Below, one piece after another: positions 28,837-61,330 of a stretch of DNA of 64,000 bases; position 1 is the stretch's first letter; each line of letters begins with the position of its first letter. Made by a program: the position numbers and the translations under genes. Below the pieces are notes generated by a model. It was not told where the DNA came from, searched no databases, and worked only from the letters and a program-made list of their open reading frames with translations. Origin of the DNA: an uncultured Acidobacteriota bacterium (GTDB taxonomy: Bacteria > Acidobacteriota > Vicinamibacteria > Vicinamibacterales > UBA2999); the NCBI GenBank assembly GCA_963802675.1, contig CAWDJL010000003.1:265158-329157 (forward strand), written 5' to 3'.

Positions 28837-29046
28837 GGCAGTTGCGTTGCCGCTGCCGCGAATCCGGGTTCCGGTGCCCGGTCCGCGCTGCGATGGCCGC
28901 TGCGGGCCGCGTGACGCGAGCCCCACCGCGCGACCAGAGGTGCGGTCGGGGACCCCTGCTCGCGGAATTCCCACCGCCTTCTCGCGCGGTCGGATCCGCG
29001 CGCGGGCACCTCCACACGGCTTCGCCACAGCGGCAACGCAACTGCC
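28837..29046. repeat. 210-bp element closed by a perfect 19-bp inverted repeat
   Basis: GGCAGTTGCGTTGCCGCTG at 28837-28855 and its exact reverse complement CAGCGGCAACGCAACTGCC at 29028-29046. The interior is itself partly palindromic. It lies 22 nt after the stop of the PQQ-like gene. Confidence 0.7.
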
Positions 29047-29154
29047 TTCCGGACTGGGCGTGTTTACAGTTGTCCGACAGGAAGACACGGAAGCCGGTTT
29101 GTTTGGTGTGCCGCGAAGAACACGTGCGGGTTGCGATACTTCAACGTGTGACCT

Positions 29155-29318
29155 GTTTGCGGAGCGAACCGTGTGGAGCCCGCCGTCACGATCACGAAAA
29201 ACGTCGCGCAGGCGAGTGACAGCGCGTGGGGATGGGGGCCCCCACGCGGCGTTCCACGCGACGATACGCCGGAGCGACGTTTTTCCGGCGTGCGGAACCC
29301 GGTTCGTGGAGCAAATGG
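29155..29318 (+). repeat. 164-bp repeat, copy 1 (inverted partner at 32881-33044)
   Basis: About 88 percent identical by hand alignment to the reverse complement of 32881-33044. Contains hairpins CGCGTGGGG..CCCCACGCG and CGCCGGA..TCCGGCG. Confidence 0.8.
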
Positions 29319-29328
29319 GTCACATCGA

Positions 29329-29631
29329 ATGTCAGAGCAATCCGCAGAAGCACTGCTGCTCACGATTCGCGTGATTCCTCGCGCGAAACGATCGGGCATC
29401 GATGGCATGCGCGGCGATGCCATCCTCGTCCGTCTGCAGGCACCACCAGCCGACGGCGCGGCCAATGAGGAGCTCATTGACGTTCTCGCCGCCGCCCTGG
29501 CCGTACCCAGGCGCGCTGTGACGATCGTCTCAGGCGAACGATCACGTCAGAAACGTGTGAGAGTGACCGGAGTCGATGCCGTGACTGCGCAAGCGCGCTT
29601 GGCGAAAGCGCAGCCTAAGATGAATCCGTGA
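29329..29631 (+). CDS. DUF167 (YggU-like) protein
   Basis: ATG 29329. LLLTIRVIPRAKRSGIDGMRGDAILVRLQAPPADGAANEELIDVLAAALAVPRRAVTIVSGERSRQKRVRV is the typical YggU pattern. The upstream part of the tracked ORF is a translated repeat. Confidence 0.7.
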   Translation: MSEQSAEALLLTIRVIPRAKRSGIDGMRGDAILVRLQAPPADGAANEELIDVLAAALAVPRRAVTIVSGERSRQKRVRVTGVDAVTAQARLAKAQPKMNP

Positions 29632-30029
29632 GCCTTCGCTGGCCCGTACGTCTTCTACTCATCGGCGGTTTACTCATCACCGCCTGCGACTCGTCTGTAG
29701 CCCCACCGCCCCAGACGGTTGCGGCGGCGAGGCCGCTCGGCACCTGGGAGGGCAGTGGCAATCGCACCATTGGCATCAACAGCGATTCGGGCCGATTCCG
29801 CGTGAAGTGGGAGACGCGAGAAGGCGCCTCGCCGGGCGGGAGCTTTCGGCTGACGGTCCACAGCGCCGTCAGTGGCCGCCCGATTCAGGTCATTGCCGAC
29901 CACCAGGGCGCGGGTGGCGCGACCGTCGACTTTGCCGACGACCCCCGCCCCTACAACCTGATGATCGACTCAGCCGGCGTGCAGTGGTCGTTTTCCGTGG
30001 AAGAAATTGTCGCTGGGCGGCTTCGCTGA
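29628..30029 (+). CDS. lipoprotein, hypothetical
   Basis: GTGA overlap with the upstream gene. Lipobox LLITAC. 133 aa with no recognised domain. Confidence 0.55.
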   Translation: MSLRWPVRLLLIGGLLITACDSSVAPPPQTVAAARPLGTWEGSGNRTIGINSDSGRFRVKWETREGASPGGSFRLTVHSAVSGRPIQVIADHQGAGGATVDFADDPRPYNLMIDSAGVQWSFSVEEIVAGRLR

Positions 30030-30030
30030 C

Positions 30031-30187
30031 GGTCCACGGTCCACGGTCTACGGTCCACGGCACGTAGGCTGCCTCAGTCCCTTCGGACAAGCTAGTCAGC
30101 AACTGCCAATGGCAACTGAGCGAGAACCTCCGTGCCGGAGACCGTAGCGAGCCGGCGACCGGCAGACCGTGGACTGTCGAGACCGGG
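30031..30187. repeat. heptamer-word palindrome (TCCACGG/TCTACGG units)
   Basis: GGTCCACGGTCCACGGTCTACGGTCCACGG at 30031-30060. Inverted units (CCGTAG.., CCGTGGAC) at 30130-30187. Starts 2 nt after the lipoprotein stop. Confidence 0.7.
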
Positions 30188-30208
30188 ACGGAGTATTCTT
30201 TACAGATA

Positions 30209-30865
30209 TTGAACGCCGTGAATTATCGACTGAACGTGCTTGTCCTCATCCTCCTGTCCGCGGCATGCCGGAGCGCGCAGGGCGGCTCTGGACCGCAGAT
30301 CATTCAGCCCGGCGCGCCCGGGCAGGAGAGCCGCGAGGTCTCGGCCGCCAAGACCGCGACCGAGTCCCAGCTTTCCCACACCGACGCGGACGTCAAGTTC
30401 ATGCAGGGCATGATTGGCCACCACGCGCAGGCGATTGAGATGTCGGCCCTCGTTCCGACGCGGACCGCGCGGGACGAAATGCGGCTCCTCGCCAAGCGCA
30501 TCGACGTTTCGCAGGCGGATGAGATCAAGATGATGCAGGAGTGGCTGCAGCGGCGCGCTCAGAGGCTGCCCGACCCGCACGCGCACCACCAGCCAGGCGC
30601 GACGCTGATGCCCGGCATGCTGTCGCAGGAAGAGATGAGCCGTCTCGGCGCGGCCAAGGGTGACGAATTCGATCGCCTGTTCTTGCAGGGCATGATCAAG
30701 CACCACGCGGGCGCACTGACGATGGTGCACGAGTTGTTTGCGAGTCCGGGAGCGGGGCAGGAATCGGAGATTTTTGCGTTCGCATCCGACGTCGACGCCG
30801 ACCAGCGGATGGAAATCGATCGGATGGGCGCCATGCTCGCGACCATCAAGGAGCTTCAGCAATGA
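30209..30865 (+). CDS. DUF305 family lipoprotein (four-helix, His/Met-rich)
   Basis: Signal/lipobox LVLILLSAAC. Duplicated DUF305 motifs DVKFMQGMIGHHAQAIEMS and DRLFLQGMIKHHAGALTMV. Confidence 0.75.
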   Translation: MNAVNYRLNVLVLILLSAACRSAQGGSGPQIIQPGAPGQESREVSAAKTATESQLSHTDADVKFMQGMIGHHAQAIEMSALVPTRTARDEMRLLAKRIDVSQADEIKMMQEWLQRRAQRLPDPHAHHQPGATLMPGMLSQEEMSRLGAAKGDEFDRLFLQGMIKHHAGALTMVHELFASPGAGQESEIFAFASDVDADQRMEIDRMGAMLATIKELQQ

Positions 30866-30874: not shown

Positions 30875-32818
30875 GTGATCAGATTCCTCGCGCTGGCCGC
30901 CGTGGCTGGCGTGCTGGCCGTGGAAGGTGCCGCGCAGGGTCCGTCGGCTTCGACGACGGATCCGCGGGTGGGACTCAAGCCCGGCTTCCGTGATGCGGGC
31001 GTGGCGGCGCGCAACATGGAGCTGGTGGCGAGCATGCCCAAGCCCGACGGATTCTTCGATCCGAAATCCCCCGAAGGCATCGGAAGCGCGCCGGAGCCTC
31101 CGCCGGCAGCGGCGGGCACTCCGGCGCCGGAAACGCCGAGCACGCCCCCCCAAACGACACAGTCACCTGCGCCTACGACCACGCCGGCCGCAAATGCAAC
31201 ACCAGGCGGTCCCGGAGGCCCCCCAGGAGGAGGCGGTGGCGGTGGTGGTGGCAGCGGACTGAACTTTGCCAACTCCGACCTCGCGTTCTCGGGCAATCAC
31301 CTCTTCATGGGCAACTTCAACGGGTTCAATGCCTATGACGTCGAGAACACGCGACGACCGCGACTGCTGGCGTCGATCGTCTGCCCGGGCGGTCAGGGCG
31401 ATGTGTCAGTGCACGGCAACCTCTTGTTCATGTCGGTCGAGCAGACTCGTGGTCGCGTGGACTGCGGCGTCGAGGGTGTTTCGTTGGCGGTGAGTGCGGA
31501 GCGCTTCCGCGGGGTTCGTATCTTCGACATCACCGACATCCGCAAGCCAAAGCAGGTGGCAGCGGTGCAGACCTGCCGTGGGTCGCACACGCACACGCTG
31601 GTGACATCCCCCAACGACAAAGAGAACATCTACGTGTACGGCTCGGGCACCGGCATGGTTCGATCGGGCGAAGAGCTCGAGGGATGCTCGGGCGGCAAAC
31701 CCGAAGAGGACAAGAACACCGCGCTCTTCAGCATCGACGTGATCAAGGTTCCCCTCGCCGCACCTGAAAAGGCCGCCATCGTCGCGCGCCCGCGTATCTT
31801 CGCCGATGAGAAGACCGGCGCCCTCGCGGGTTTGTGGGCCGGTGGCGATCACGGGCCAGGCACGCAGCGCACATCGATGACGAACCAGTGTCATGACATC
31901 ACGGTGATGCCCGAGGCGGGCCTGGCGGCAGGCGCGTGCTCGGGCAACGGCATCCTGCTGGACATTTCCGATCCGGTGAAGCCGGTGCGGCTCGATGCGG
32001 CCAGCGACAAGAACTTCGCCTACTGGCACTCGGCCACGTTCAACAACGACGGCACCAAGATCGTCTTCACCGACGAATGGGGAGGCGGGACGCGTCCGCG
32101 CTGCCGCGCCAGCGATCTGCAGACCTGGGGCGCCGACGCCATCTTCGACATCGTCGACAAGAAGCTGCGGTTCGGCAGCTACTTCAAGATGCCCGCGGCG
32201 CAGACCGACACCGAGAATTGCGTCGCCCACAATGGCTCGATCATCCCGGTGCCGGGGCGCGACATCATGGTTCAGGGCTGGTATCAGGGTGGACTGTCGG
32301 TGTTCGACTTCACCGATTCGGCCAACCCCGTGGAAATCGCGTTCTTCGATCGCGGTCCGATCAGCGCTACGCGGCTCATCACGGGCGGGTTCTGGTCGAC
32401 CTATTGGTACAACGGTCACATTTACGGCGCCGAGATCGCACGCGGTGTGGACATCTTCCGCCTGACGCCAAGCGAATACCTGTCGCAGAACGAGATTGAC
32501 GCGGCGACGCAGGTGCGCATGACCGTGTTCAACGCGCAGCAGCAGCCCCGGGTGACTCACCCGGCAACGTTTGTCGTCGCGCGCGCATATCTTGATCAGT
32601 TGTCGCGCAGCAAGGCGCTGCAGCCCGAGCGCGTGGCGGCGATCAAGAGCGCCATCGATCGCGGCGACCGGCGGTCGCCAGGACGCGCGGATCTCGATCA
32701 GCTCGACACGCTGGCGGGGCAGCTCGAGAAGGACGCGAGCGCGGCGACGGGCCGCGACGCGACGCGCATGGGTGCGCTGGCCTCGACGATCAAGGAGCGG
32801 GTCTCGCGGCTTCGATAG
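30875..32818 (+). CDS. LVIVD-repeat beta-propeller surface protein, paralog 1
   Basis: GTG start. Signal MIRFLALAAVAGVLAVEGAAQG. Pro/Gly low-complexity linker including GGPGGPPGGGGGGGGGSG. Propeller core GNHLFMGNFNGFNAYDV ... GNLLFMSVEQ ... CHDITV ... WSTYWYNGHIYGAEIARGVDIF. Confidence 0.75.
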   Translation: MIRFLALAAVAGVLAVEGAAQGPSASTTDPRVGLKPGFRDAGVAARNMELVASMPKPDGFFDPKSPEGIGSAPEPPPAAAGTPAPETPSTPPQTTQSPAPTTTPAANATPGGPGGPPGGGGGGGGGSGLNFANSDLAFSGNHLFMGNFNGFNAYDVENTRRPRLLASIVCPGGQGDVSVHGNLLFMSVEQTRGRVDCGVEGVSLAVSAERFRGVRIFDITDIRKPKQVAAVQTCRGSHTHTLVTSPNDKENIYVYGSGTGMVRSGEELEGCSGGKPEEDKNTALFSIDVIKVPLAAPEKAAIVARPRIFADEKTGALAGLWAGGDHGPGTQRTSMTNQCHDITVMPEAGLAAGACSGNGILLDISDPVKPVRLDAASDKNFAYWHSATFNNDGTKIVFTDEWGGGTRPRCRASDLQTWGADAIFDIVDKKLRFGSYFKMPAAQTDTENCVAHNGSIIPVPGRDIMVQGWYQGGLSVFDFTDSANPVEIAFFDRGPISATRLITGGFWSTYWYNGHIYGAEIARGVDIFRLTPSEYLSQNEIDAATQVRMTVFNAQQQPRVTHPATFVVARAYLDQLSRSKALQPERVAAIKSAIDRGDRRSPGRADLDQLDTLAGQLEKDASAATGRDATRMGALASTIKERVSRLR

Positions 32819-32880: not shown

Positions 32881-33044
32881 CCATTTGCTCCGCCAACCGG
32901 GTTCCGCACGCCGGAAAAGCGCAGCTCCGGCGTAACGTTGGGTGGAACGCGGCTTGGGGGCCCCCAACCCCAAGCCCTGTCACTCGCCTGCGCAGCGCTT
33001 TTCGTGATCGTGACGGCGTGCTCCACACGGTTGACTCCGCAAAC
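32881..33044 (-). repeat. 164-bp repeat, copy 2 (inverted partner of 29155-29318)
   Basis: Its reverse complement aligns over the full length with 29155-29318. The hairpin arms are GGCTTGGGG..CCCCAAGCC, i.e. two compensatory base-pair changes relative to copy 1. Confidence 0.8.
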
Positions 33045-33267: not shown

Positions 33268-35161
33268 ATGCGAAACGCAGCAACTGGATTTCTGACTGCC
33301 GCGGTCCTGGCCTCGATGGTGATCGCCGTCGACACGCAGGAGCGTGCCGGCAATGCGGCGACGAGTGATCCGCGGGTCGGCCTCAAGGGCGGCCTTCGTG
33401 ATGCGGGCGTGGCGGCGCGCAACATGGAACTGCTGGCGAACCTGCCCAAGCCCGACGGCTTCTTCGATCCCACGGCCCCGGCTGGTGCGGTGAGCGCGCC
33501 CGAGCCGCCGCCTGCGGCCGCGGGCGCACCGTCAGGCCCCACCGCCAATCGGCCGGAGGGCGCTGCCGGTAACGCCACGCCGCCTGCACCGCCGCGAGGT
33601 GGAGGTTTCACGAACTCCGATCTCGCCTTCCGCGGAACCAATGTCGTCGTGGGGAACTATCACGGCTTCAACACCTACGACATCGAGAACGCGCGCAAGC
33701 CGCGGCTGCTCGCCTCGGTCGTCTGCCCCGGAGGTCAGGGCGACGTGTCGATCTACGGCAACCTCCTGTTCATGTCGGTCGAGCAGACGCGCGGGCGCAT
33801 CGACTGCGGCGTGCAGGGTGTGACCGCGCCGGTGAGCGCTGAACGGTTCCGAGGCATTCGCATCTTCGACATCACCGACTTGAAGAAGCCGCGACAAGTG
33901 GCGGCGGTGCAGACTTGCCGTGGGTCACACACTCACACGCTGGTTCCGGACAAGAACGACAAGGCGAATCTGTATGTCTACGGTTCGGGCACGAGCTCGG
34001 TGCGAGCGGGTGAAGAGCTCGAAGGATGCTCTGGACGTGATCCGAAAGAGGATCCCAACACCTCGCTCTTCAGCATCGACGTGATCAAAGTGCCGCTCGC
34101 CAATCCCGAGAAAGCGGCGATCGTGAATCGCCCGCGCATCTTCGCGGATCCGAAATCGGGTGCCATTTCGGGCTTGTGGCAGGGCGGCGATCACGGGCCA
34201 GGAACGCAGAGCTCGCGGATGACCAATCAGTGTCATGACATCACGGTCCTTCACCGAGATCGGGCTGGCCGCCGGTGCGTGCGCGGGCAACGGCATCCTG
34301 CTCGACATCTCCGACCCCGTGAACCCTGCTCGCCTCGACCATGTCACCGACAAGAACTTCGCGTACTGGCATTCGGCGACGTTCAACAACGATGGCACCA
34401 AGATCCTCTTCACCGACGAGTGGGGCGGCGGCGGCCGTCCCCGTTGCCGCGCCACCGACCTGCCGACCTGGGGCGCGGACGCAATCTTCGACATCGTCGA
34501 CAAGAAACTGCGCTTCGGCGGCTACTACAAGATGCCGGCCGCACAGACCGAGCAGGAAAACTGCGTCGCGCACAACGGGTCGCTGATTCCGGTGCCGGGC
34601 CGGGACATCATGGTGCAGGCGTGGTATCAGGGCGGCGTGTCGGTGTTCGACTTCACCGATTCCGCCAACGCGCACGAGATTGCGTTCTTCGACCGCGGGC
34701 CCGTCTCGGACAAGGAGCTCGTGTCCGGCGGTTACTGGTCGACCTACTGGTACAACGGGAACATCTACGGCGCCGAGATCGCGCGCGGCCTCGACGTCTT
34801 CCGATTGACGCCGAGCGAGCACCTGACGCAAAACGAGATCGACGCCGCCACGCTGGTTCGCTTCGAGGAGTTCAACTCGCAGCAGCAGCCGCGCGTCACG
34901 TGGCCGGCGACGTTTGTCGTCGCGCGCGCGTATCTCGATCAGCTGACCCGGAGCAAGGCGCTGCAGGCGGATCGAGTGACGGCGATCAAGAGTGCCATCG
35001 ACCGTGCCGACCGGCGGTCTCCCGCTCGCGGCGATCTCGACGCGCTCGATACGCTCGCGTCGCAGCTCGACAAGGAGGCTGGTGCGGCCACGGGCCGCGA
35101 CGCCATGCGCATGCGATCGCTGGCGTCGACGCTAAAGGAGCGGGTCGCTCGGCTTCGATAG
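33268..35161 (+). pseudogene. LVIVD-repeat beta-propeller surface protein, paralog 2; one +1 junction near 34252
   Basis: Collinear with 30875-32818 throughout. MTNQCHDITV|..EIGLAAGACAGNGILLDISDPVNPARL continues in the 34235 ORF frame and ends ...LKERVARLR* like paralog 1. Confidence 0.75.
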
Positions 35162-35179: not shown

Positions 35180-35298
35180 GGCCTCAGAGACTCAGAAACA
35201 CAGAGAAGCTAGAACTAAACCAACACGAAGGACACGAAGCACACGAAGAACCCTAACCACTTACTCTCTTCGTGCCCTTCGTGTTCTTCGTGTTGCAT
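35180..35298 (+). repeat. composite element: GGCCTCAGAGACTCAGA word plus CACGAAG-unit hairpin (left bracket of the MBL gene); probable bidirectional terminator
   Basis: Hairpin arms at 35222-35250 (AACACGAAGGACACGAAGCACACGAAGAA) and 35267-35296 are complementary at about 26 of 29 positions. It lies between convergent genes. Confidence 0.7.
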
Positions 35299-35307: not shown

Positions 35308-36195
35308 CTACCTCGCACGCAGATAGGTTCCAGGCGCCGTTTCAGTCACCTGGCCGCGTGCGATGAGCCGTTCAAGATGGAGCTCCGCGGATCGCCTCTC
35401 CACGCCATCGACAAACAGCAACGTGACGTGCGGCCGGTAGACGAACCGGTGGGCGACGATGTCGTCGAGCGTGCGGGGCTGGTCGAGAAAATCGAGGAGC
35501 GCCTGCTCGCGGCGAGGGATGACGGCCTCGTACTCGGTCAGCAGCGCAAGGAACTCCTGACGCCCCTCTACGACTCCGCGATGGTGAAAGGTGACGAACC
35601 AGCGGGCGTCGAGGTCGCGGCACTTGCGCAGCGTCTGTTCGAAATCGTCCAGGCTCGACCACGCATCGCCGTAGTACGGGCCAAACCCGGTCAGGTCGAT
35701 GTCCGCCAAATACATCACGCCATGAGGCTCGATCAGAATCCCGGAGTGCCCGCGAGTATGTCCTGGGAGATGAACCACGTGGAGTGTCGTGCGCCCCAGA
35801 TCGAAGGTATCCCCGTCGCCATACGCCGTGGCATCGGGGCGCGGCGTGTAGTGGAAGCTCTCGAGCACCTCGTCCCTCCACTCGGCTTCAATGGAAGGCG
35901 GCAGGCCGTAAATCCGCATCAGCCCATCGATTGAGTCGAGCCCCAGCTTGTCGGCCTCGGGTACGACGATCGACGCGTCCGGATAGCGAAAAACACCTGC
36001 CAGATGATCCTCATGGCAGTGGCTGAGCAAGATCGAATCGGCTGCCGGCACCTCCATCGCGCCCGCCAGACTCAGCGACGGATCGATGATCATCGTGCTG
36101 TCGCGGCCTTGCACGATGACGGAATTGCCGTGCGGGTACCGTCCGCCGCTCGTCCCGCGCAACACGCGCACAGCGTCTAACGACAACAGGTCCAC
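35308..36195 (-). CDS. MBL-fold metallo-hydrolase
   Basis: Intact 295-aa ORF. HxHxDH motif LLSHCHEDHLAG, later LPGHTRGH. The GTG start lies inside the first heptamer repeat unit, so the start is uncertain. Confidence 0.75.
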   Translation of the reverse strand: MDLLSLDAVRVLRGTSGGRYPHGNSVIVQGRDSTMIIDPSLSLAGAMEVPAADSILLSHCHEDHLAGVFRYPDASIVVPEADKLGLDSIDGLMRIYGLPPSIEAEWRDEVLESFHYTPRPDATAYGDGDTFDLGRTTLHVVHLPGHTRGHSGILIEPHGVMYLADIDLTGFGPYYGDAWSSLDDFEQTLRKCRDLDARWFVTFHHRGVVEGRQEFLALLTEYEAVIPRREQALLDFLDQPRTLDDIVAHRFVYRPHVTLLFVDGVERRSAELHLERLIARGQVTETAPGTYLRAR

Positions 36196-36389
36196 GGTCT
36201 ACGGTCCAAGGTCTACGGTCCACAGTCTACGGTCCACGGTCTACGGTAGCCACGAAGGGCACGAAGACACGAAGAAACACGAAGCCAGTTTGGATCTGAT
36301 CCGAATAACCTTCGTGGTCCTTCGTGCCCTTCGTGGCTACGAACCGTTGTTGCGTGAGTCTCTGTCAAGAACTCTGAGTCTCTGAGGCC
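36189..36389. repeat. heptamer array (TCYACGG x8) plus CACGAAG-unit hairpin plus CTGAGTCTCTGAGGCC word (right bracket of the MBL gene)
   Basis: 36189-36248 is the tandem 7-mer array. Hairpin arms are 36249-36284 and 36310-36337. 36350-36389 ends with the reverse complement of the 35180 word. Confidence 0.75.
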
Positions 36390-37410: not shown

Positions 37411-37633
37411 GTTTACTAGGACTGTTTACAGCAGTAGGACTCGCTCGCCTTCGGCTCGCTTCGTGGGACTCGCGCCTTCGGCGCTCGTGGGGGCGCGGGC
37501 CGTCCGGCCCGCGCCTGTGAATTCTGATGAGCAATCTGAAGCGGCGGCCGACCGGCCGCCGCCCCCACGAGCGGAGCGAGTCCCACGAGGCGCGCAGCGC
37601 CGAGCCCTACGAGCGCCCGAAGGGCGCGAGTCC
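37411..37633. repeat. 223-bp imperfect palindrome, family with 44866-45108
   Basis: Left arm GTTTACAGCAGTAGGACTCGCTCGCC...CTCGTGGGGGCG. Right arm CGCCCCCACGAG...GAGTCCCACGAGGCGCGCAGCGCCGAGCCCTAC. Shares these words with the 44866 element. Confidence 0.7.
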
Positions 37634-38283: not shown

Positions 38284-38440
38284 GATGCTCGCTCCGACTC
38301 TTTGAAACACGGCTACCCGCAACCGGCGTTGTCGTGTACCGTTGTGCGGCTCGACGCGCTGCATTACTGTTGATATTGACAAGCGTCCGTGATGAGCAGG
38401 ACCGAGCCGACCGGCCACCGAGCCACCGATCCCACGCTGA

Positions 38441-39380: not shown

Positions 39381-39445
39381 GGCCACGGTCCACGGCCCAC
39401 GGTCACGGCCCACGGAGCACTGACCACTGACCACTGATCACTGAC
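39381..39445. repeat. heptamer arrays CCACGGY x5 and CACTGAY x4
   Basis: GGCCACGGTCCACGGCCCACGGTCACGGCCCACGG then CACTGACCACTGACCACTGATCACTGAC. The same CACTGAT word recurs at 38437-38456 on the other side of the DUF1028 gene. Confidence 0.7.
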
Positions 39446-41078: not shown

Positions 41079-41091
41079 TCGGGAGCCCCTG

Positions 41092-46416: not shown

Positions 46417-46417
46417 A

Positions 46418-47935: not shown

Positions 47936-47957
47936 GACGTTTTTCCAGAGTCGCCTT

Positions 47958-53868: not shown

Positions 53869-55195
53869 ATGTATCCCAATCCGCAAGACGCGCTCCCTCT
53901 TCCGTCACGCCCCAACGGTCGAGCAGTACAAGAAACTCGCCAAAGAGCTGGTGAAGGCGTGCAAGTCGAATGATGCGACTGCCCTTCGCAGCTGGGCCAC
54001 ACAGTGGATTCATGCGCTGGCGGCGTTGCACAAGGAACCGGGCGCGTTACGGGACGAACGTGAGGTTACGGCGCGGGCCGACCAGGTCGAGCGGTTTGCC
54101 CGAAAGAAGCTGACCGGGGGTGCGGGCTCGAGATGCGCACTGACCGATGCGCAGTTCGTAATTGCCCGTGCTCACGGCTTCCCGAGTTGGCCGATCTTCG
54201 TGGAGCACATCGACTCGCTGGCACGCGCCAGTTCGCCGACCTCCACCTTCGAAGCCGCCGCCCACGCCATCGTCTCGGGCGACATCTCGACGGTCGGGCG
54301 TCTGCTGCAAGAGCAGCCGGAATTGATCCGGGCGCGGTCCACACGCGAGCACAGGGCCACGCTCCTGCATTACGTTTCGGCCAACGGGGTTGAGAACTAC
54401 CGTCAGGTGTCGCCAAAGAACATCGCGGAGATCACCGAGCGGTTGCTCGCGGCCGGCGCCGAGGTCGACGCCGAGGCAAACGTCTATGGAGGCGGCTGCA
54501 CGACGCTCGGTCTCGTCGCCACGAGCGCACCGCCATTCATCGCCGGCGTGCAGCAGGACGTCATGGACGTGTTGCTCGAGCATGGCGCGAGCCTGGATCG
54601 CATTGGAGCCGCCGGCAACCGGCAGTCACTGGTTCGCGGCTGCCTGGCGAATGGCCAGCCCGCAGCGGCCGCGTACCTTGCGAGCCGCGGCGCTCCGGTC
54701 GACCTCCCGGACGCGGCGGGCCTGGGGCGTCTCGACCTCGTGAAGGAGCTAATCGATCAGGATGGTGGGCTCGCGGAAGATCGGACGATCGCGAGAATGA
54801 AGGATTCCTTCTCGTTGGCCTGTGCGTACGGTCGATCGGAGGTCATCGATTTTCTTCTCAACCGCGGTTTCGACGTGGACGAGGAGCTCAAGGGCCATGG
54901 ACAAGGGCACACCGGTCTTCATGTCGCCGCGTACCATGGACATGTCGACGCCGTTCGGACGCTGCTGCGCCACGGCGCACGCGTCGATGTGATCGACAAG
55001 ACCTGGGGCACGCCGCCGCTCGTCTGGGCGCTGACCGGTTGGAGCGGCAGGCCCACGACCGAGGCGCGCTACTACGACGTCGTGGCTCAGCTCGTGGCAG
55101 CGGGCGCGACGGTGAAGCCTGAACTGCTCGAATGGGACAGGGTGCGTGAGGATCCGAGAATGCACGCGGCACTCGGGATCGACGCTACGCAGTAA
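53869..55195 (+). pseudogene. ankyrin-repeat protein; one +1 junction near 53917
   Basis: AAGGAG then ATG 53869 gives MYPNPQDALPLPSRPN, then the next frame gives VEQYKKLAKELVKACKSND and the 414-aa ORF. ANK repeats e.g. GHTGLHVAAYHGHVDAVRTLLRHGARVDV. Confidence 0.7.
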
Positions 55196-56744: not shown

Positions 56745-57008
56745 ATGGGCATCACACGCCAAGCGGTGCAATACGGGCAGCGCCGGATCATGCGCAAGTT
56801 GCTCCGTTCGGTACCATTTCTTGGTGGATTGGTCGCCGTTGCAACGGTGACCCGAGCGGTTCGCCGGAAGGGTCTGTTCGGTGGAACGCTCGATACCGCG
56901 CTCGACGTCATCCCGTTCGTGAGTGGCGCCAAAAACGTTCTGGAGATCGTCCGCGGCCGCGACTTCATCGCTGACCGACAGCGCCCAGCGCGCCAAACTT
57001 CCGCCTGA
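56745..57008 (+). CDS. small hypothetical protein with one TM helix (weak call)
   Basis: MGITRQAVQYGQRRIMRKLLRSVPFLGGLVAVATV... Third-position GC is lower than in neighbouring genes. Its stop codon is the loop of a CTTCCGCC-TGAA-GGCGGAAG hairpin. Confidence 0.25.
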   Translation: MGITRQAVQYGQRRIMRKLLRSVPFLGGLVAVATVTRAVRRKGLFGGTLDTALDVIPFVSGAKNVLEIVRGRDFIADRQRPARQTSA

Positions 57009-57068
57009 AGGCGGAAGCCACGCGATATTCTTTAGGTATTCGTGGCTTCCGGCTTTAGCCGGAAGATT
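56998..57068. repeat. GGAAGCCACG-family hairpin pair, locus 2
   Basis: CTTCCGCCTGAAGGCGGAAGCCACG ... CGTGGCTTCCGGCTTTAGCCGGAAG. Confidence 0.75.
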
Positions 57069-57125
57069 GAACCGCGATACCGATCCAGCTGATACACGGC
57101 GAGCGTCTTCGCACGGACAGCTCGC

Positions 57126-58430
57126 TCACGTGACCGCCGCGCGAACGCTGAACTGCGGTTGGCGCCACTCACCACGTTGAAGGACGTGCGCGAGGCGATC
57201 AACGGCATCCCACACGTCCGCGAAGCGGGTGTACAACGGCGCGAAGCCGAACCGCAGGATGTCGGGCGCTCGAAAGTCGCCGATCACGCCACGTGCGATG
57301 AGCGCTTGCATGATGGCGTAACCATCACTCGGATGCGCGAGGCTGACCTGGCTGCCGCGGGCGTTGCTTTCGCGCGGCGTCACGACTGAAAGGCCGTCTC
57401 CGGCGCAGCGCGATTCCACCAGGTCGATGAACAGCCCCGTCAGGCGTAGCGATTTTTCGCGGAGCGCGGACAGTCCCCCGCACGTTTCCGCGGCCAGCAC
57501 GACGTCAACGCCGCATTCCAGGGCCGCAAGCGACAGAATCGGTGGGGTGCCGCAAACGAACCGCGCGATGCCTGGCGCGGGGTGATAGTCGGTTGAAAAG
57601 TCGAACGGTGCGGCATGCCCCAGCCAGCCTGAGAGCGGCTGCCGCCATCCGTCACGGTCCATGCGCTCCGTGAGCCGGGGGTGGACCCACAGGAATGCGG
57701 GCGCGCCCGGACCGCCGTTGAGATATCTGTACCCGCAGCCAACAGCGAAGTCAGCCGCGTCCTCGTCCGCTCCCCGACCACGCAGATTGACCGGAACCGC
57801 ACCGACGGAGTGCGAGAGATCCCAGACCATCAAGGCGCCGACCCTATGGGCCGCGCGCGTGATCGCCCTGAGATCATTCATACGGCCGGTGCGATAGTTC
57901 ACGTGCGTCAGCATCACGACGGCCGCCGTCTCGTCGATCTGCGTGAGCAGGTCATCACTGTCGATGAGACGCAGTGAAAAACCCCGCTCGCGGGCAAGGG
58001 TATCTGCGATGTAGAGATCGCTCGGAAAGTTGGTGCGCTCCGAAACAATGCAGCGCCGTGTTGGCTCGTCTGCCTTTACGAGCGCCACGGCTGCGCTCAG
58101 CACCTTGTATAGGTTGGCCGAGGTCGAGTCGGCGACCACCACCTCGCCAGGGCCGGCGCCGACCAGCCGCGCAATCTTGTCGCCAACACGATGCGCGAGC
58201 GTGATCCAGCCCGCGGTGTTCCAGCTGCGAATCAGCCCGCGACCCCACTCGTCGGAGGCAACCTGCGCGAGCCGCGCTGGTGTGACTCGGGGCAGCGGAC
58301 CGAGCGAGTTGCCATCGAGGTAGACAAGGCCGGACGCATCGGCTTGGTCAAGAGCAAAGTGGTCGCGCAACGACCTGAGTGGATCGGCCCCATCGAGCGC
58401 CAGGCAGTCCTCGCGTGTGATCATGCGCAA
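57126..58430 (-). CDS. kynU: kynureninase
   Basis: Intact 434-aa ORF. VYLDGNSLGPLP ... SWNTAGWITL ... VVADSTSANLYKVL ... VWDLSHSVGAVPVNL ... YRYLNGGPGAPAFLWV is the kynureninase PLP-enzyme pattern. Confidence 0.85.
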   Translation of the reverse strand: MRMITREDCLALDGADPLRSLRDHFALDQADASGLVYLDGNSLGPLPRVTPARLAQVASDEWGRGLIRSWNTAGWITLAHRVGDKIARLVGAGPGEVVVADSTSANLYKVLSAAVALVKADEPTRRCIVSERTNFPSDLYIADTLARERGFSLRLIDSDDLLTQIDETAAVVMLTHVNYRTGRMNDLRAITRAAHRVGALMVWDLSHSVGAVPVNLRGRGADEDAADFAVGCGYRYLNGGPGAPAFLWVHPRLTERMDRDGWRQPLSGWLGHAAPFDFSTDYHPAPGIARFVCGTPPILSLAALECGVDVVLAAETCGGLSALREKSLRLTGLFIDLVESRCAGDGLSVVTPRESNARGSQVSLAHPSDGYAIMQALIARGVIGDFRAPDILRFGFAPLYTRFADVWDAVDRLAHVLQRGEWRQPQFSVRAAVT

Positions 58431-58546
58431 CCGCTTCGTGACGATACCTCACAACGCCTCCCCTCGGCCTTGACCCTCCCGACTCGCTTCGAGGGGCGCT
58501 GAAGCCTGTAGACCGCGAGCCGTTCTCGTTCTATCCTCTGGCAGCC

Positions 58547-61191
58547 GTGATCGGCAGCACGCTGCTTCACTACCGAATCCTTCATACGCTTGGCGCAGGA
58601 GGAATGGGGGAGGTGTATGCCGCAGAAGATACCCGGCTCAATCGCCGCATCGCTATTAAGCTGCTGCCACCCGATACGGCAGCAGACCCGGAACGCCTCG
58701 AACGCTTCCGCCGCGAAGCGCAAGCCGTCGCCGCCCTGAATCATCCAAACGTCGTCACGATCTATTCGGTCGAGGAGGCGAACGGATTTCACTTCCTGAC
58801 GATGGAGATCGTCGAGGGGAAGACGCTGGTCGATTACATCAGGGCTGGCGGCGTGGCGTGGTCAGACTTTTACAAGTGGACGATTCCGCTGGTTGATGCC
58901 ATCAGCGCGGCGCATCAACGTGGCGTCATTCACCGCGACATCAAGCCCGCGAACATCATGATTGGCAGCGTCGGGCGTTTGAAAGTCCTCGACTTTGGCA
59001 TCGCGAAGTTGAAGCACTCCGGCACGGAGAGGGGTGCGGGGCTGGAGACGACGGCTCGTATGACAGCGCCGCAGGCGGTATTTGGCACAACGGCCTACAT
59101 GTCGCCGGAGCAGGCAGAGGGGAAGCTTGTTGATGCGCGCTCGGGCATTGCTCTGGCGTCGTGTTGGACGAAATGGTGGCCGGCGCCCGCCCCTTCACGG
59201 GTGACACGAGCATGTCTCTCCGTCTTCGATCATCAAGGATCTGGCTGTCGCTGACCGGGGTGCGTTCTGATGCGCCGGCAGACCTCGATTGAATCCTGCG
59301 ACGGTGTCTGGCCAAAGATACTGACCGTCGTTACCAGACGGCGATCGATCTGCGCAACGACCTCGAGGACTTGCAGCAGCAGCGCTTCGCCTCGCAGACC
59401 GCCGCCGAGAACGCGATATCAATCGTTACGGGTCGGCGTCGACACTGGTTGGTCGGTGTGGCGCTGATGGGGGCAATGGCGGGCATCGCTGCGTTCCTGA
59501 TCTGGCGGCAACCGGCGCCGCCCGCGCCGTCGAGCACCTTGCGGGCGACATTCAGTCAACTGACGCACAACCCCGGCATTGAGTGGTTTCCCAGCCTCTC
59601 TCAGACGGGCGCTGGGTGGTGTACGCGGCGATGGCGCCGGGAATCGAGACATTTACCTTCAGAGCGTGAGTGGTCAGACACCGATCAATCTGACAAGAGA
59701 TTCAACCGACGACGACGATCAGCCGGCGTTCTCGCCGGATGGCGAGCGAATTGCGTTTCGATCGACGCGCGAAGGCGGCGGCTTGTTCGTGATGGATGCA
59801 ATGGCGAAGCGGTCCGACGACTCACCAAGATCGGGTTCAACCCAGCGTGGTCCCGAGACGGAAAGCAGATCGCTTTCACGACGATTCTTAATGAGCTCAG
59901 GCCGCAGAACACGGAAGGCGTAAGTGAGCTGTGGGTTGTTGGCGTTGATGGTGGCGAGCCCCGGCGGCTGTAATAATCGGACGTCGGTTTGCCCAATTGG
60001 TCTCCCCGCGGTCAGCGCATTGCATTTGGCGTTCGCCGCGGTGGCGCACGTGCGTCGGATGGACATTGTGACGATTCCAGTTGAGGGCGGGGCTGAGCAG
60101 GCGGTGACCCTTGACGCCCATCTCGACTGGAACCCCGTGTGGGCGCCAGACGGTCGTCACTTGTACTTTGTGAGCGATTGCGGCGGCAGCACGAATATCT
60201 GGCGCGTGCCGATGGACGAAGCGTCAGGCCAGACGCTTGGAGATCCCGAGCCAATCACATCACCGGCACCGTTCGCCACACATTTGACGATCTGGGCTGA
60301 GGGAACCCGATCGCGTACAGCTCGGTACGAGACACAAGACATCCAGAAGATGGAGTCGACCCGGCGACGGGTGACCCGGTGTCGCAGCCATTGGCGGTGA
60401 CGACCGGATTACGGTTCTGGGCCAACCCGTACCTGTCCCCCGATGGTCAGGCCGTGGTGGCCGACTGGAAGTCAATCCGGAAGGCGATCATACATCGTCA
60501 GGACAGATGGTTCGGGTGCGCTTCGTCAACTGACGTCGGATCCCGCGATCGATCGCGTCCCGCGCTGGTCACCCGATGGCGCCTGGATTGCCGCGTTCTC
60601 CGATCGGATGGGTCACTGCAGATCTGGAAGATTCGGACCGGACGGTAGCGATCTCCGAGCAGATGACGAACGTCAAGGGTAGCGGCGTCGTGGCCTGGTC
60701 ACCCGATAGCCGCACGACTCGCGGTGACATTGTCACGCCGCATTGGCGCAGACGCGCCCGAGGGCGGGAGCGCTATGAAATCGACGTCCGAGCGGCCGAT
60801 GACGGACCAGGTCGATCGATCGTCTGCCATCAGAATCCAGCACGGATCGACGATTTGTGCCGAATGCATGGTCGCTCAGACGGCCGTGGATCACAGGGCA
60901 GTCCTGGTACGACGTTCCGGGCGTCTCGTTTACTCAGTGCAGGCGACGGACGTATGAACGGCTGTCCACCGTTGGCGAATGGCCGTGTGGTTGGCGGACA
61001 GCCGTCGTGTGCTGTACGTCTCGCGTGGGCGCGAGTTTCACGTCCTCGATACGCAGACCCGCACCACGAAGCAGATCTTTTCGGTCCTCCGCGACACGCT
61101 CGGCCCGCCGCGTGTTACACGCGACGGGCGGCACATATTCTTTTCACGCCGCATCACCGAATCGGACGTGTGGATGGTCAATCTCCAATAA
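58547..61191 (+). pseudogene. Ser/Thr protein kinase fused to TM helix and TolB-like WD40 beta-propeller; at least 10 frame junctions plus an in-frame TGA
   Basis: Kinase core GAGGMGEVY...AIKLL...HRDIKPANIM...VLDFGIAK...TTAYMSPEQ. Then GVVLDEMVAGARPFTG, PADLD[TGA 59290-59292]ILRRCLAKDTDRRYQTAIDL, TM HWLVGVALMGAMAGIAAFLIW. Propeller pieces are scattered over all frames (FSPDGERIAFRS, NPAWSRDGKQIAFTT, WAPDGRHLYFVSD, PRWSPDGAWIA, VAWSPDSR). Ends FFSRRITESDVWMVNLQ*. Confidence 0.7.
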
Positions 61192-61216
61192 TGAATCGGT
61201 AGCACTGTTCAGACTA

Positions 61217-61330
61217 GCGGCTAAAGCCGGAAGCCACGAATCCCAACAATATCGCGTGGCTTCCGCCCTCACACTGAAGCCTGGAGCCACGCCCCAAACA
61301 ATATCGGCGGCTTCCGCCTTCAGGCGGAAG
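61217..61330. repeat. GGAAGCCACG-family hairpin cluster, locus 3
   Basis: GCGGCTAAAGCCGGAAGCCACG ... CGTGGCTTCCGCC ... GGAGCCACG ... CGGCTTCCGCCTTCAGGCGGAAG. The spacer words CAACAATATCG and AAACAATATCGG are repeated. Confidence 0.75.

Follow-up and report, generated by a model that had tools for sequence, protein, structure and literature searches.

The genome of an uncultured soil Acidobacteriota contained a repeat-bearing stretch of 33 kb, located at 28.8-61.5 kb of the 64,000-nt window (the whole stretch of DNA analysed here), in which matching copies of several repeats lay on both sides of genes. These repeats evolve fast, differing even between closely related genomes. They are a variant of known bacterial intergenic repeats and not a new gene-cassette system; as to how they arose, we lean towards intergenic repeats of the STRR/LSSR/REP type that change by slippage, keep their palindromes and are copied locally.

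Structured spacers

Among the 17 spacers of at least 100 nt between 28.8 and 61.5 kb, 13 were structured, with z-scores of -3.4 to -10.6 against shuffles; before 28.8 kb none of 14 spacers was structured (all z > -1.7), and the boundary was sharp. Individual hairpins had dG of -50 to -85 kcal/mol and z of -3.5 to -8.8 against dinucleotide shuffles. Three kinds of element were recognised (Table 1): hairpins and arrays of 7-18-nt tandem words, REP/BIME-like palindromes, and a multi-stem palindrome of ~170 nt. The original prediction had described nearly every spacer above 100 bp as a palindrome with arms of 7-9-nt tandem words; strong structure was indeed general (13 of 17), but only four to five spacers had that architecture. 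The remaining spacers were occupied by palindrome-free arrays, REP-like palindromes, a GC-rich repeat with a 58-nt period, or the 164-nt element, itself free of tandem words. The sequences and shared families named in that prediction were all found at their coordinates, including the TCYACGG family (30029, 36189 and 39383), the GGAAGCCACG family (49.5, 57.0 and 61.2 kb) and the 37411/44866 pair.

Table 1. Repeat elements of the 28.8-61.5 kb region (dG in kcal/mol).
Position	Strand	Element	Remarks
28830-29053		Long-range imperfect palindrome, 51-nt arms, 122-nt loop	Arms 80% complementary; directly 3' of stop codon of BamB-like gene; whole spacer (28815-29328) z -7.1
29155-29318	+	164-nt multi-stem palindrome, copy 1, type A	Ends 11 nt before yggU start codon
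30029-30190		Heptamer-arm hairpin, left (GGTCYAC)n, right (GRGACCG)n	dG -74.2, z -4.7; between lipoprotein stop and DUF305 promoter-like site
32881-33044	-	164-nt element, copy 2, type B, inverted	Downstream of LVIVD1
35180-35298		CTCAGAG words, then hairpin with (CACGAAGNN)3 and (NNCTTCGTG)3 arms (MBL left flank)	dG -49.8, z -4.9; between convergent LVIVD2 and MBL
36189-36247		(GGTCCACGGTCTAC)4 array	Abuts MBL start codon on its upstream side
36249-36389		CACGAAG-word hairpin, then reverse complement of GGCCTCAGAGACTCAGA (MBL right flank)	dG -69.3, z -7.0; begins 6 nt past PALP stop codon
37411-37633		Composite: TAGGACTGTTYACAGCAG words, GC-rich hairpin (37482-37573), 24-nt CCCACGAG-type repeats	Spacer z -7.5; partner 44866-45110
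38401-38456	+	(ACCGAGCC)3.6 and (CACTGAT)3 arrays, no palindrome	Overlap DUF1028 stop codon; spacer z +1.4
39383-39445	+	(CCACGGY)5 grading into (CACTGAY)4, no palindrome	Divergent DUF1028/DUF6496 spacer; z 0.1
43263-43606		GC-rich palindromic repeats, GCGGAAGGCCGC-type words, periods 15, 19 and 58	Spacer z -9.4; left breakpoint of segment missing in L001
44866-45110		Composite: 20-nt and 18-nt tandem words (AGTCCTACTGCTGTGAAC x2.3), hairpin	Right breakpoint of segment missing in L001
46291-46322	+	(AGTTACA)3.6 array, orphan arm	In L001, left arm of complete hairpin preceding extra 2-kb gene
46325-46417		Unequal-arm hairpin, (AGGGTTCCA)2 against (GGAACCYT)9	dG -52.9, z -3.5; between convergent genes
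47954-48000	+	(GGAACCYT)5.5 array	Divergent padR/MBL2 spacer, 18 nt before MBL2 ATG, upstream of padR promoter-like site
49503-49710		Nested REP/BIME-like palindromes, CTTCCGSC-N4-GSCGGAAG-CCACG units, and 20-nt tandem repeat	dG -85.4, z -8.8; between convergent genes
56989-57087		Inverted dimer of the same REP-like unit	dG -54.3, z -5.3
61205-61330		Three more REP-like units of the same family	Downstream of kinase/PD40 gene

The structure was concentrated at gene ends: 11 of 12 spacers containing a gene 3' end were structured versus two of six divergent ones (Fisher test ~0.02), a placement compatible with the terminator or insulator role suggested earlier. No U-tracts were found at the window hairpins, and canonical terminators were not enriched in the window (8 found versus 13.4 expected). 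Because the first 28.8 kb contains 14 hairpin-free spacers, the hairpins cannot be the general terminators of this genome. They sit almost only at gene ends and have no U-tract, and they probably act in RNA as 3'-end structures; candidate roles would be termination that depends on a factor or needs no U-tract, a shield against 3' exonucleases, or processing of the 20-35-bp stems by an RNase III-type enzyme.

The repeats are real and not assembly artefacts, because independent short-read contigs and two related long-read genomes, L001 and L002, carry the elements at orthologous sites. It is very improbable that the tracts are artefacts, or that the genes are integron-like cassettes bounded by attC-type sites; both are contradicted by the evidence. 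Imperfect palindromes of differing sequence do separate gene-sized units, and the window does contain frameshifts typical of long-read assemblies. However, the genes lie in both orientations and include multi-gene units, the stems are long and near-perfect, unlike attC, no RYYYAAC/GTTRRRY cores were seen on reading the elements, and the arrays were reproduced in three short-read contigs from other samples as well as in both long-read genomes. A scan of 60 ORFs in the window revealed no transposase, RAYT or integrase gene, as had been noted.

Matching copies around genes

Four brackets of matching copies had been described. The first pair, around yggU to LVIVD1, was recovered with 164-nt arms that are 88% complementary; it is not a bracket of tandem words as had been thought, and represents a different kind of element. 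Across five copies, 11 of its 60 predicted pairs showed compensatory changes. It has imperfect terminal inverted repeats, was missing at both sites in L002, and was present in three copies in L001, one of them extra.

Around the MBL gene, GGCCTCAGAGACTCAGA with a CACGAAG-word hairpin was confirmed on the left and its inverse on the right; GGCCTCAGAGACTCAGA at 35180 and a perfect 17-nt complement at 36373 enclose the gene, and each flank alone folds into a complete hairpin. In L001, the closest relative, both flanks carried one new 13-nt word family. The L001 left flank aligned with the reverse complement of the right one over ~150 nt at ~80% identity (score 141), while each scored 11-27 against its window and L002 orthologues (shuffled maximum 25); the window flanks align over the non-repetitive GGCCTCAGAGACTCAGA segment. 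The MBL gene itself was ~94% identical despite the flank replacement. The two flanks are coupled. The pair can equally be read as a single 3'-end module that recurs after LVIVD2 and after PALP.

The other two brackets were also found, both in direct orientation: CACTGAY heptamers around DUF1028 (38437-38456 and 39410-39445) and GGAACCYT octamers around the padR operon (46345-46417 and 47954-48000). GGAACCYT arrays also stood on both sides of padR-HAAS in the three independent short-read contigs from other samples.

Strict adjacency of matching spacers in the window (two adjacent pairs) did not exceed chance (P 0.2-0.4), but the distances between matching spacers were shorter than in permutations (P 0.004-0.03). 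The earlier claim that copies pair around single coding units, taken as a statistically distinct organising principle, is not supported in the window. Second CACGAAG arrays in independent metagenome loci decayed with distance, from 0.66 per 10 kb within 3 kb to 0.11 beyond 3 kb. Array pairs of the same locus shared words in 12 of 102 cases at 0.25-5 kb apart and in 7 of 135 at more than 5 kb, versus 48 of 5456 pairs between different genomes.

These figures bear on whether the matches between neighbouring spacers are coincidences of a limited word vocabulary in a repeat-rich genome. The non-significant adjacency, the words still shared beyond 5 kb, and CCGGNNG-type heptamers occurring in five L001 spacers would fit such an account. 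We consider it improbable, as the MBL-flank alignments exceed shared words, the proximity is significant, second copies decay with distance, and word sharing between genomes is rare.

Gene-content change in relatives

A check against relatives showed that gene content changes at the elements. Positions 43298-44854 were missing from L001, and the breakpoints fall in arrays. An extra 2-kb gene in L001 was enclosed by two word hairpins, and its junction showed AAGTTCC microhomology; similarity between locus L081 and the window stopped precisely where the padR-side array ends distally. The elements do act as indel breakpoints between close relatives.

Orthologous arrays had changed in place and were not gained or lost as units. 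The heptamer hairpin at 30029-30190 kept its architecture in the window, L001 and L002 with differing unit counts, and the GGAACCYT arms comprised 2+9 units in the window, 6+12 in L081 and 5+10 in L001. The 18-mer TAGGACTGTTCACAGCAG had become TGGGACTGGTCACAGCAG in every copy of the L001 array, and words drift along arrays, for example from CCACGGY to CACTGAY in the window. The distant partners at 37417 and 45062 showed no joint change in L001.

CACGAAG arrays in other genomes and GxxExxY genes

The words had been considered private; they are not, as arrays of CACGAAG, of GGTCYAC and of GGAACCYT turn up again in metagenome and phage contigs unrelated to the window. For CACGAAG the count was at least 120 metagenome stretches and at least 120 viral ones, with GC of 0.41-0.70 in the loci examined; GGTCYAC and GGAACCYT arrays occurred in 21 and 11 stretches of unrelated contigs, respectively. 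In 39 of 42 metagenome loci with both neighbours called, a gene 3' end faced the CACGAAG element, usually 3-90 nt from the stop codon, and the flanking genes were mutually unrelated (139 Pfam families in 119 ORFs). CACGAAG hairpins of unrelated genomes had a fixed polarity of 69:2 (35:2 plus 34:0), and their TTNAC lead-in was conserved: position -2 was A in 84% and position -1 was C in 86%. Slippage and drift alone leave this polarity and lead-in unexplained, and together the two suggest that at least one word belongs to a family that is mobile or bound by a factor.

Genes for GxxExxY proteins (TIGR04256/PF13366, PD-(D/E)XK) were located in CACGAAG hairpin loops at L107, L111 and L148, with a remnant at L152. 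Among loci fetched by protein identity, the GxxExxY gene was flanked by CACGAAG/CTTCGTG words in all eight inspected, always between unrelated host genes; the eight came from five different queries, and three of them (L506, L508 and L509) are nearly the same locus. In five of the eight (L500, L501, L503, L504 and L505), CACGAAG stood just before the start codon and CTTCGTG after the stop. A GxxExxY gene of 45% identity lay within arrays of other words. The GxxExxY genes inside CACGAAG hairpins thus hint at a selfish-element origin, and they offer one lead to the spreading mechanism that the original prediction left unnamed; but the window has no such gene.

We might then speculate that the hairpins derive from small selfish elements as non-autonomous, MITE-like copies, and that a nuclease or transposase whose gene lies elsewhere in the genome mobilises them in trans; for CACGAAG the enzyme would be the GxxExxY protein in the loop of full-length copies, and matching flanks would result from insertion into nearby spacers, by local hopping or by break repair from a nearby copy. 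The wide spread of CACGAAG, its polarity and lead-in and the GxxExxY loci are in favour, the gene in other-word arrays would fit different words per lineage, and the 164-nt element also counts in favour, being missing at both L002 sites, with an extra L001 copy and imperfect terminal inverted repeats. We nevertheless rate this as rather unlikely: no GxxExxY, transposase or RAYT gene was found in the window, L001 or L002, the window CACGAAG hairpins are without the TTNAC lead-in, orthologous arrays evolve in place and do not come and go as whole units, a look for target-site duplications identified none, and no demonstration of GxxExxY element mobility was found in the literature searched.

The same loci could suggest that the brackets work in RNA, with complementary arms pairing across a gene and looping the cistron, like rRNA-flanking processing stems, for RNase III processing, mRNA stabilisation or translational control. 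GxxExxY and small phage genes fit closely between CACGAAG words on the 5' side and CTTCGTG words on the 3' side; of the two arms, the purine-rich one is always 5' and contains a GAAGGAGG-like ribosome-binding sequence; in L029 a PALP gene lies between (CACGAAGA)3 and (CTTCGTGG)4; and the two complementary GGCCTCAGAGACTCAGA segments surround MBL. Yet the DUF1028 and padR brackets, in direct orientation, cannot pair, each MBL flank is already a complete hairpin, the L002 left flank is without the outer CTCAGAG arm, the padR-side array precedes the predicted padR promoter, and for loops above 600 nt converging arms were not enriched over the opposite order. We regard this as unlikely.

Proposed origin of the repeats

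In the explanation towards which we lean, 28.8-61.5 kb would have been colonised by several non-coding structured repeat families of the three kinds, the tandem words having units of 7-9, 13 and 18 nt and the REP/BIME-like elements being short palindromes in inverted dimers. Replication slippage would alter unit number, and a variant unit could take over an array; copy-number differences and whole-array word changes between strains were observed. A palindrome-preserving process, possibly selection on structure or template-switch correction, would keep the arms complementary, as the compensatory changes suggest. Short-range copying or gene conversion would then act between neighbouring spacers, consistent with MBL flanks that change together and with second copies that decay with distance. 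Matching brackets would be by-products of palindrome preservation, local copying and gene gain or loss inside arrays, not a dedicated cassette system. At the DNA level, the elements provide the microhomology and homology through which strains lose or replace genes.

Comparison with known systems

Integron cassettes and their attC sites also have imperfect palindromes of variable sequence between gene-sized units, but in the window genes lie on both strands, an integrase and conserved core sites are lacking, and the stems are near-perfect. Intrinsic terminators and 3'-end stabilisers share the GC-rich stems 3-90 nt past stop codons, often between convergent genes. The window stems, unlike terminators, have no U-tract, are far longer than typical ones at 20-35 bp or more, and do not occur in half of the window. 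Processing stems flank rRNAs, and hairpin-shaped intervening sequences of 23S rRNA have a small ORF in the loop. Similarly, a gene lies between complementary arms here and GxxExxY genes occupy loops at related loci; unlike those systems, each window flank forms a hairpin by itself, and two brackets out of four consist of direct repeats.

The 164-nt element resembles MITEs as a structured palindrome with imperfect terminal inverted repeats and variable presence (window and L001 but not L002, with the extra L001 copy). It differs in that no target-site duplication or parent transposon was identified and in that its stems carry compensatory changes like those of structured RNAs or maintained cruciforms.

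The likeness to REP/BIME and STRR heptamers noted in the original prediction was upheld. REPs are located mainly downstream of genes (PMC3733652), and so are the window units, which have 8-bp stems, 4-nt loops, a CCA-like tail, and head-to-head and tail-to-tail dimers. Unlike REPs (PMC3733652) they carry no GTAG or CGTC tag, there is no RAYT in the window, only seven REP-like copies were seen, and the tandem-word hairpins are much longer and made of repeated units.

The closest counterparts of the tandem words are long simple sequence repeats with 5-11-nt units, such as the cyanobacterial STRR heptamers, GGGAATC in Xanthomonas and TAACTGA in Beggiatoaceae (PMC4692102; PMC4679880; for such repeats see also Mrazek et al. 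2007, as cited in PMC4679880). Heptamer-rich intergenic tandem repeats vary in length and sequence between close species and have inverted arrangements in convergent spacers (PMC4692102), and identical heptamer repeats are common to distant lineages (PMC4679880). The window differs in having at least eight word families in 33 kb versus one to three genome-wide words, in its many long near-perfect hairpins with unequal arms, in the uncultured Acidobacteriota host, and in the limitation of the elements to one part of the window. In common with those repeats, the window repeats are intergenic, head-to-tail and mostly of 7-9 nt, unit number and sequence vary between close relatives at one intergenic site, convergent spacers hold some of them as inverted pairs while others abut a start codon on its upstream side, and one word can turn up in distant lineages.

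Tandem-word arrays and hairpins of the intergenic spacers

The original coordinates hold. TRF recovered tandem arrays at 30029, 35223, 36189, 38437, 39383, 46291, 46345 and 47957, whose periods are 7, 8, 9 or 10 nt and whose copy numbers range from 2.9 to 9.1, and all spacers were also read directly. A repeat finder returned the 164-nt inverted pair, the TCYACGG family, the GGAACCYT arrays, the GGAAGCCACG family and the 37417/45060 pair, and as an observation the original prediction is largely right. Every array sits in a spacer between Pfam-supported ORFs, one of them overlapping the DUF1028 stop codon. The gene map of the window rests on Pfam matches.

Genes mapped in the repeat-bearing part of the window and at its border
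Gene	Position	Strand	Basis
BamB-like	27567-28814	+	Pfam
yggU	29329-29631	+	Pfam
lipoprotein	29628-30029	+	Pfam
DUF305	30209-30865	+	Pfam
LVIVD1	30875-32818	+	Pfam
LVIVD2	33268-35161	+	Pfam
MBL	35308-36195	-	Pfam
PALP	36396-37403	-	Pfam
hypothetical	37639-38310	-	gene map
DUF1028	38441 to ~39335	-	Pfam
DUF6496	39488-40018	+	Pfam
GT4/GDE	40034-43256	+	Pfam
DUF4423	43965-44777	-	Pfam
hypothetical	45137-46288	+	gene map
HAAS	46418-47485	-	Pfam
PadR	47496-47840	-	Pfam
MBL2	48018-48959	+	Pfam
DinB	48987-49484	+	Pfam
sortilin/BNR	49739-53086	-	Pfam
ankyrin	53951-55195	+	Pfam
kynureninase	57126-58430	-	Pfam
kinase/PD40	58547-61202	+	Pfam

Compared with dinucleotide shuffles, six of ten folded spacer segments gave z scores of -4.7 to -8.8; their stems are nearly perfect and 20-35 bp long. 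When every spacer was folded and compared with mononucleotide shuffles, z was -3.4 or lower in 13 of the 17 spacers of at least 100 nt at 28.8-61.5 kb and ranged from -1.65 to +0.84 in the 14 spacers of 1-28.8 kb, so that the regional boundary at 28.8 kb is sharp. Neither short-period arrays nor unusual folding was found in these 14 spacers. The first 28.8 kb contain TPR, VWA, glycosyltransferase and methyltransferase genes, together with numerous ORFs that have no Pfam match. A 274-nt inverted repeat in this hairpin-free part (22002-22275 and 26630-26903, 73% complementary, 4.4 kb apart) probably consists of two paralogous gene segments that have diverged.

The spacers had been described as filled by palindromes with tandem-word arms. 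This held for four spacers with 7-9-nt words (30029-30190, 35222-35295, 36249-36340 and 46325-46417), whereas the remaining elements were heterogeneous. One palindrome is built of 18-20-nt words (44866-45110), and 43263-43606 is a GC-rich palindromic repeat with a 58-nt period. Three arrays have no palindrome (38401-38456, 39383-39445 and 47954-48000), two of them in divergent spacers. The element bracketing yggU to LVIVD1 is a multi-stem palindrome of about 170 nt without tandem words. At 49.5, 57.0 and 61.2 kb we found REP/BIME-like elements with 8-bp stems, 4-nt loops and a CCACG tail in inverted dimers; seven CTTCCGSC-N4-GSCGGAAG units form the dimers I3, I4, I7 and I15.

The window GC is 0.59-0.68. 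Rfam gave no hits in the entire window at gathering thresholds, and in E-value mode at 28.8-61.6 kb its only matches were spurious ones of miRNA precursors to the GGAACC hairpin. The window yielded neither tRNA nor tmRNA, and its 60 scanned ORFs contained no transposase, RAYT or integrase, in agreement with the original reading.

Related genomes and reality of the repeats

Species-representative genomes were scanned with the PALP protein, and two syntenic long-read MAGs of uncultured Acidobacteriota were obtained, here L001 (CAWJEM01, MFD04850.bin.1.250) and L002. The best match, L001, has 96% amino-acid identity with the window and 93-96% nucleotide identity in its genes; L002 has 86% and about 80%. 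Exact-protein look-ups with MBL and the GDE fragment gave no match, probably owing to wrong start codons or a frameshifted gene. Frameshifts split several window genes (34252; 40900-42420; 59250-60580): the LVIVD2 match switches frame near 34252, GT4/GDE forms three ORFs in the window and one 785-aa ORF in L001, and the kinase/PD40 gene is broken into four ORFs. Either the long reads contain indel errors here or the genes are pseudogenes.

An assembly artefact as the source of the arrays was ruled out, since arrays recur in independent short-read contigs and L001 and L002 hold elements in the orthologous spacers. The exact PadR protein was found on three short-read contigs from other samples, with GGAACCYT arrays at the same two places and different unit numbers. 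Two short-read contigs terminate within the GGAACCYT array (L082:1-40 and L083:1-40), so such arrays break short-read assemblies; they are of practical concern for this and because they can mislead gene calling.

Coupled evolution of neighbouring copies

The comparison of the three genomes is the strongest evidence for coupling of neighbouring copies. The two flanks of the MBL gene are related to each other in the window, L001 and L002. In the window they have GGCCTCAGAGACTCAGA and the CACGAAG hairpin in common, and in L002 CACGAAG words stand at both flanks. In L001 both flanks carry 13-nt GGTTCTT/AAGAACC words and align with each other, inverted, over about 150 nt with a score of 141; with the orthologous flanks of the window and L002 the score is 11-27, which is the shuffle level (maximum 25). 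The MBL gene is about 94% identical between the window and L001 despite these changed flanks. Since the innermost window unit with the loop start (CACGAAGAACCCT) resembles the L001 13-mer (CGTGAAGAACCTC) at 9 of 13 positions, it is plausible that the new unit was born in place and then homogenised.

All copies of the 18-mer array at 45062-45103 are altered in L001, while its distant partner at 37417 is unaltered. In all three genomes the 30029-30190 hairpin is found at its place, built in the same heptamer architecture from differing numbers of units. In L001 the regions downstream of LVIVD1 and LVIVD2, array plus element, are homogenised, which is ordinary paralogue conversion; in the window these genes are tandem paralogues with about 76-83% nucleotide identity. 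Within 10 kb of L001, five spacers also contain heptamer arrays of the CCGGNNG type, on one strand (8116-8168, 9122-9143, 12637-12685, 15031-15075 and 18812-18839). At least three of them stand directly after stop codons where the window has no array, through either recent local spread or parallel drift.

For the 164-nt element, a consensus of five copies, two from the window and three from L001 (18605-18771, 14811-14996 and 12395-12537), contains 60 pairs, 11 of which show compensatory double changes, so the fold is maintained. L002 lacks the element at both sites, and a third copy is present in L001. Between the window and L001 two variants have been swapped between both positions, and the L001 copy downstream of LVIVD1 is reversed, with a remnant of the other variant beside it; recombination between inverted copies or re-insertion would account for this. 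By reading, the ends of the element match inverted at 14 of 21 positions. About 60 nt past the end of copy 3 in L001 there is a fragment, GCTCCACACGGTTGTCTCCGCAAACGG, that is complementary to the start of this copy. No target-site duplication was identified at the element.

Gene content also differs among the related genomes at the repeats. Window 43298-44854 (a small gene and DUF4423) is missing in L001 with the junction inside repeats, the 44778-45136 spacer holds an additional gene in L002 (L002:2511-3202), and the short-read contig L081 is similar to the window exactly as far as the distal end of the padR-side array. Breakpoints coinciding with repeats are expected here, because nearly all spacers carry them. 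Only one case points to the array itself as substrate. In L001 (739-2846) an extra 2-kb gene lies between a complete AGTTACA hairpin and a GGTTCC hairpin, and at the corresponding window site (46322/46345) only the left AGTTACA arm is retained, fused to the GGTTCC array. The 7-nt AAGTTCC is present in both L001 arrays around the gene, and with the single arm in the window this fits a microhomology-mediated deletion.

Taken together, the locus and its two relatives show conserved position with sequence turnover, compensatory changes that keep the arms complementary, flanks of one gene evolving together, and gain and loss breakpoints inside arrays. Because these four features occur in one place, the locus is a tractable case for repeat spread and its effects on transcripts and genome plasticity, in hosts that are abundant uncultured soil bacteria. 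As the most likely explanation we lean, without great confidence, towards local evolution of 3'-end hairpin repeats driven by slippage and recombination.

Position at gene ends and possible RNA role

Structured spacers were 11 of the 12 with at least one gene 3' end and 2 of the 6 divergent ones (one-sided Fisher ~0.02). A terminator scan gave 8 terminator-like sites against 13.4 expected, none coinciding with the hairpin elements. All hairpins are without a U-tract, the tails read at hairpins are not T-rich, and canonical promoters are not enriched either. With no U-tract and no enrichment of canonical terminators, a 3'-end RNA role of the hairpins, whether as terminators, as guards against exonucleases or as long stems for RNase III-type processing, is plausible, though it would have to be non-canonical. 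They are not the general terminators of the organism, because 28.8 kb has none. RNA pairing of the two flanks was ruled out as a general explanation, since the repeats around DUF1028 and the padR operon are direct.

At 30190-30226, GGAGTATYCTTTACAGATA directly follows a heptamer hairpin and contains a promoter-like TTTACA-16-AATTAT; L001 and L002 have conserved the 19-nt sequence itself. The arrangement suggests a putative terminator or insulator followed by a promoter for DUF305. A sigma-70-like padR promoter was predicted at 47880-47935 (TTGACA-17-CATAGT, 10 of 12 matches). It is adjoined by a short palindrome, catagtgtgtagaacatactatg, between padR and the GGAACCYT array, possibly a PadR operator.

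Words outside the window and their local clustering

The claims of private words and of pairing around coding units are only partly right. The words are not private, for the same ones form arrays in unrelated metagenome and viral contigs. Three CACGAAG words spaced by 1-3 nt occur in at least 120 metagenome stretches, with GC of 0.41-0.70 in the loci examined, and CACGAAG arrays in at least 120 stretches of the viral collection. In the latter, CACGAAG at period 8 gave 32 stretches and the reversed control word GAAGCAC 7, so the word is enriched, not unique; a second control word, CAGCAAG, is uninformative because its 9-nt period also captures coding repeats. GGAACCYT arrays were found in 11 and GGTCYAC arrays in 21 viral stretches. 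In many unrelated contigs several different word arrays are adjacent and the words drift along the array, and therefore the phenomenon is widespread in environmental bacteria and phages. Among 80 genome loci, L001 is dense (16 arrays in 21 kb), and word arrays also occur in other Acidobacteriota, one Gemmatimonadaceae locus and Chloroflexota loci.

Matching copies in the window are nearer to each other than in permutations: spacers sharing many 9- or 10-mers have a mean index separation of 2.9-4.2 vs 6.7 permuted (P 0.004-0.03). Strict adjacency, seen in two pairs, is not significant (P 0.2-0.4). Recurring 7-mer words are common to 12 of 102 array pairs 0.25-5 kb apart, to 7 of 135 pairs more than 5 kb apart in one locus, and to 48 of 5456 pairs from different genomes, and second CACGAAG arrays in metagenome loci number 0.66 per 10 kb within 3 kb vs 0.11 beyond. 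With this proximity and decay, and adjacency not significant, locality is supported but one bracket per gene is no distinct rule.

On a contig from a distant Acidobacteria (gp6), L029, an orthologous PALP gene lies between (CACGAAGA)3 and (CTTCGTGG)4 (4867-4890 and 6033-6065), and these are the words adjoining PALP in the window.

CACGAAG hairpins and GxxExxY genes

Outside the window, CACGAAG hairpins stand just after stop codons beside unrelated genes. In 35 of 37 metagenome and 34 of 34 viral hairpins it is the CACGAAG arm that leads (overall polarity 69:2), the period is 9 > 8 > 10 nt, and the lead-in is T T [C/A] A C, where position -2 is A in 84% and position -1 is C in 86%. A cis-regulatory element of one gene family was ruled out, as 119 flanking ORFs represent 139 Pfam families.

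Three hairpins of metagenome loci hold a gene of about 123 aa in the loop (L107:5699-6184, L111:1201-1638 and L148:3843-4259), and a fourth loop holds a remnant of this gene. The product is a GxxExxY protein (TIGR04256/PF13366, PD-(D/E)XK nuclease superfamily, E ~1e-43). The family, with at least 8000 homologues, was then sampled by protein instead of by word. With five different protein queries, all eight inspected loci (among L500-L509, gene at 501-872) were flanked by CACGAAG/CTTCGTG words, three of them (L506, L508 and L509) being near-copies of one locus. In L500, L501, L503, L504 and L505, (CACGAAGNN)2-3 stands just upstream of the start codon, and downstream of the stop there is a (CTTCGTGNN)2-3 arm, directly or behind a further CACGAAG arm; in the three near-copies one CACGAAG hairpin ends before the gene and a complete one lies after it. 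Unrelated host genes adjoin all eight units on both sides. The 5' arm reaches up to the start codon and provides a GAAGGAGG-like ribosome-binding sequence. Among the homologues, one with 53% identity has CACRAAG arms and one with 45% identity lies within arrays of other words.

Small phage genes are enclosed by CACGAAG/CTTCGTG arms likewise. One tailed-phage contig has the unit behind each of five successive genes and, next to it, CAGAGGG-word arrays, the same CACGAAG and CAGAG association as in the element around the window MBL gene. Tailed-phage and other viral contigs (L279:963-9557, minus strand; also L268, L232, L257, L264 and L280) carry TTGAAC-(CACGAAGGN)3 behind successive genes, followed by GC-rich hairpins and arrays of CAGAGGG, AACGGCG, GACAGGG and GATAGCT, all on the coding strand. 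Our literature search found no report of the GxxExxY-repeat association, and for the word CACGAAG only unrelated primer and shRNA matches.

The window hairpins at 35222-35295 and 36249-36340 agree with this family in word, period (8-10 nt) and polarity, with the CACGAAG arm on the 5' side. The TTNAC lead-in is absent, ACCAA and GTAGC preceding the first word, and tblastn found no GxxExxY/PDDEXK_3 gene in the window, L001 or L002. With word, period and polarity matching but lead-in and gene absent, membership of the window hairpins in the GxxExxY-associated family is plausible, unproven.

These data bear on the main rival to local slippage and recombination, a selfish-element origin, which now has a named candidate enzyme in GxxExxY and which we nevertheless consider rather unlikely. 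We know of no accepted function or spreading mechanism for intergenic heptamer-type repeats, known since STRR. GxxExxY offers a testable candidate mobilising enzyme, its genes being wrapped elsewhere by a word family common to phages and many other bacteria. A more specific reading, quite improbable in our judgement, is that the tandem-word hairpins are gene-less shells of widespread, undescribed small selfish elements, whose full-length forms would carry the nuclease gene in the loop, with words differing by lineage and the word-built 5' arm doubling as ribosome-binding region; breaks made by the nuclease at hairpins and repaired from a nearby copy would spread the shells to adjacent spacers. 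If this were true, genes would become bracketed by co-evolving repeats, which would drive gene loss, replacement and inversion.

Comparison with known repeat systems

Intergenic tandem repeats with units of 5-11 nt, mainly heptamers, occur in cyanobacteria (STRR), Xanthomonas, Burkholderia and Beggiatoaceae; polymerase slippage was proposed as their source, close species differ in the length and sequence of these repeats at the same sites, convergent spacers now and then hold inverted pairs, one word may occur in distant lineages, and they are without established function (PMC4679880, PMC4692102). The window arrays share with this LSSR/STRR type the 5-11-nt head-to-tail unit in at least three copies, the intergenic location, and polymorphism of unit number and sequence at the same site between relatives. 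The strict STRR, however, comprise one to three genome-wide heptamers in heterocystous cyanobacteria, whereas the window has at least eight word families in 33 kb and its closest genomes are uncultured Acidobacteriota.

REPs are found chiefly downstream of genes and are arranged as inverted dimers (PMC3733652). The 20-40-nt extragenic imperfect palindrome in inverted dimers of REP/BIME is found in the CTTCCGSC family only; its units have AGT/AAA before the stem and CCACG after it instead of the GTAG or CGTC tag, and the associated RAYT was not among the 60 window ORFs scanned. The 164-nt element shares presence/absence polymorphism with MITEs. The hairpins share with intrinsic terminators the position just downstream of a gene, but not the U-tract. 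Integron cassettes with attC sites were ruled out, with no integrase, mixed gene orientations and no RYYYAAC...GTTRRRY cores seen on reading. Compared with the known intergenic repeats, this case differs in that many word families are packed in one region, mostly as long hairpins with unequal arms, and that neighbouring copies are demonstrably coupled.
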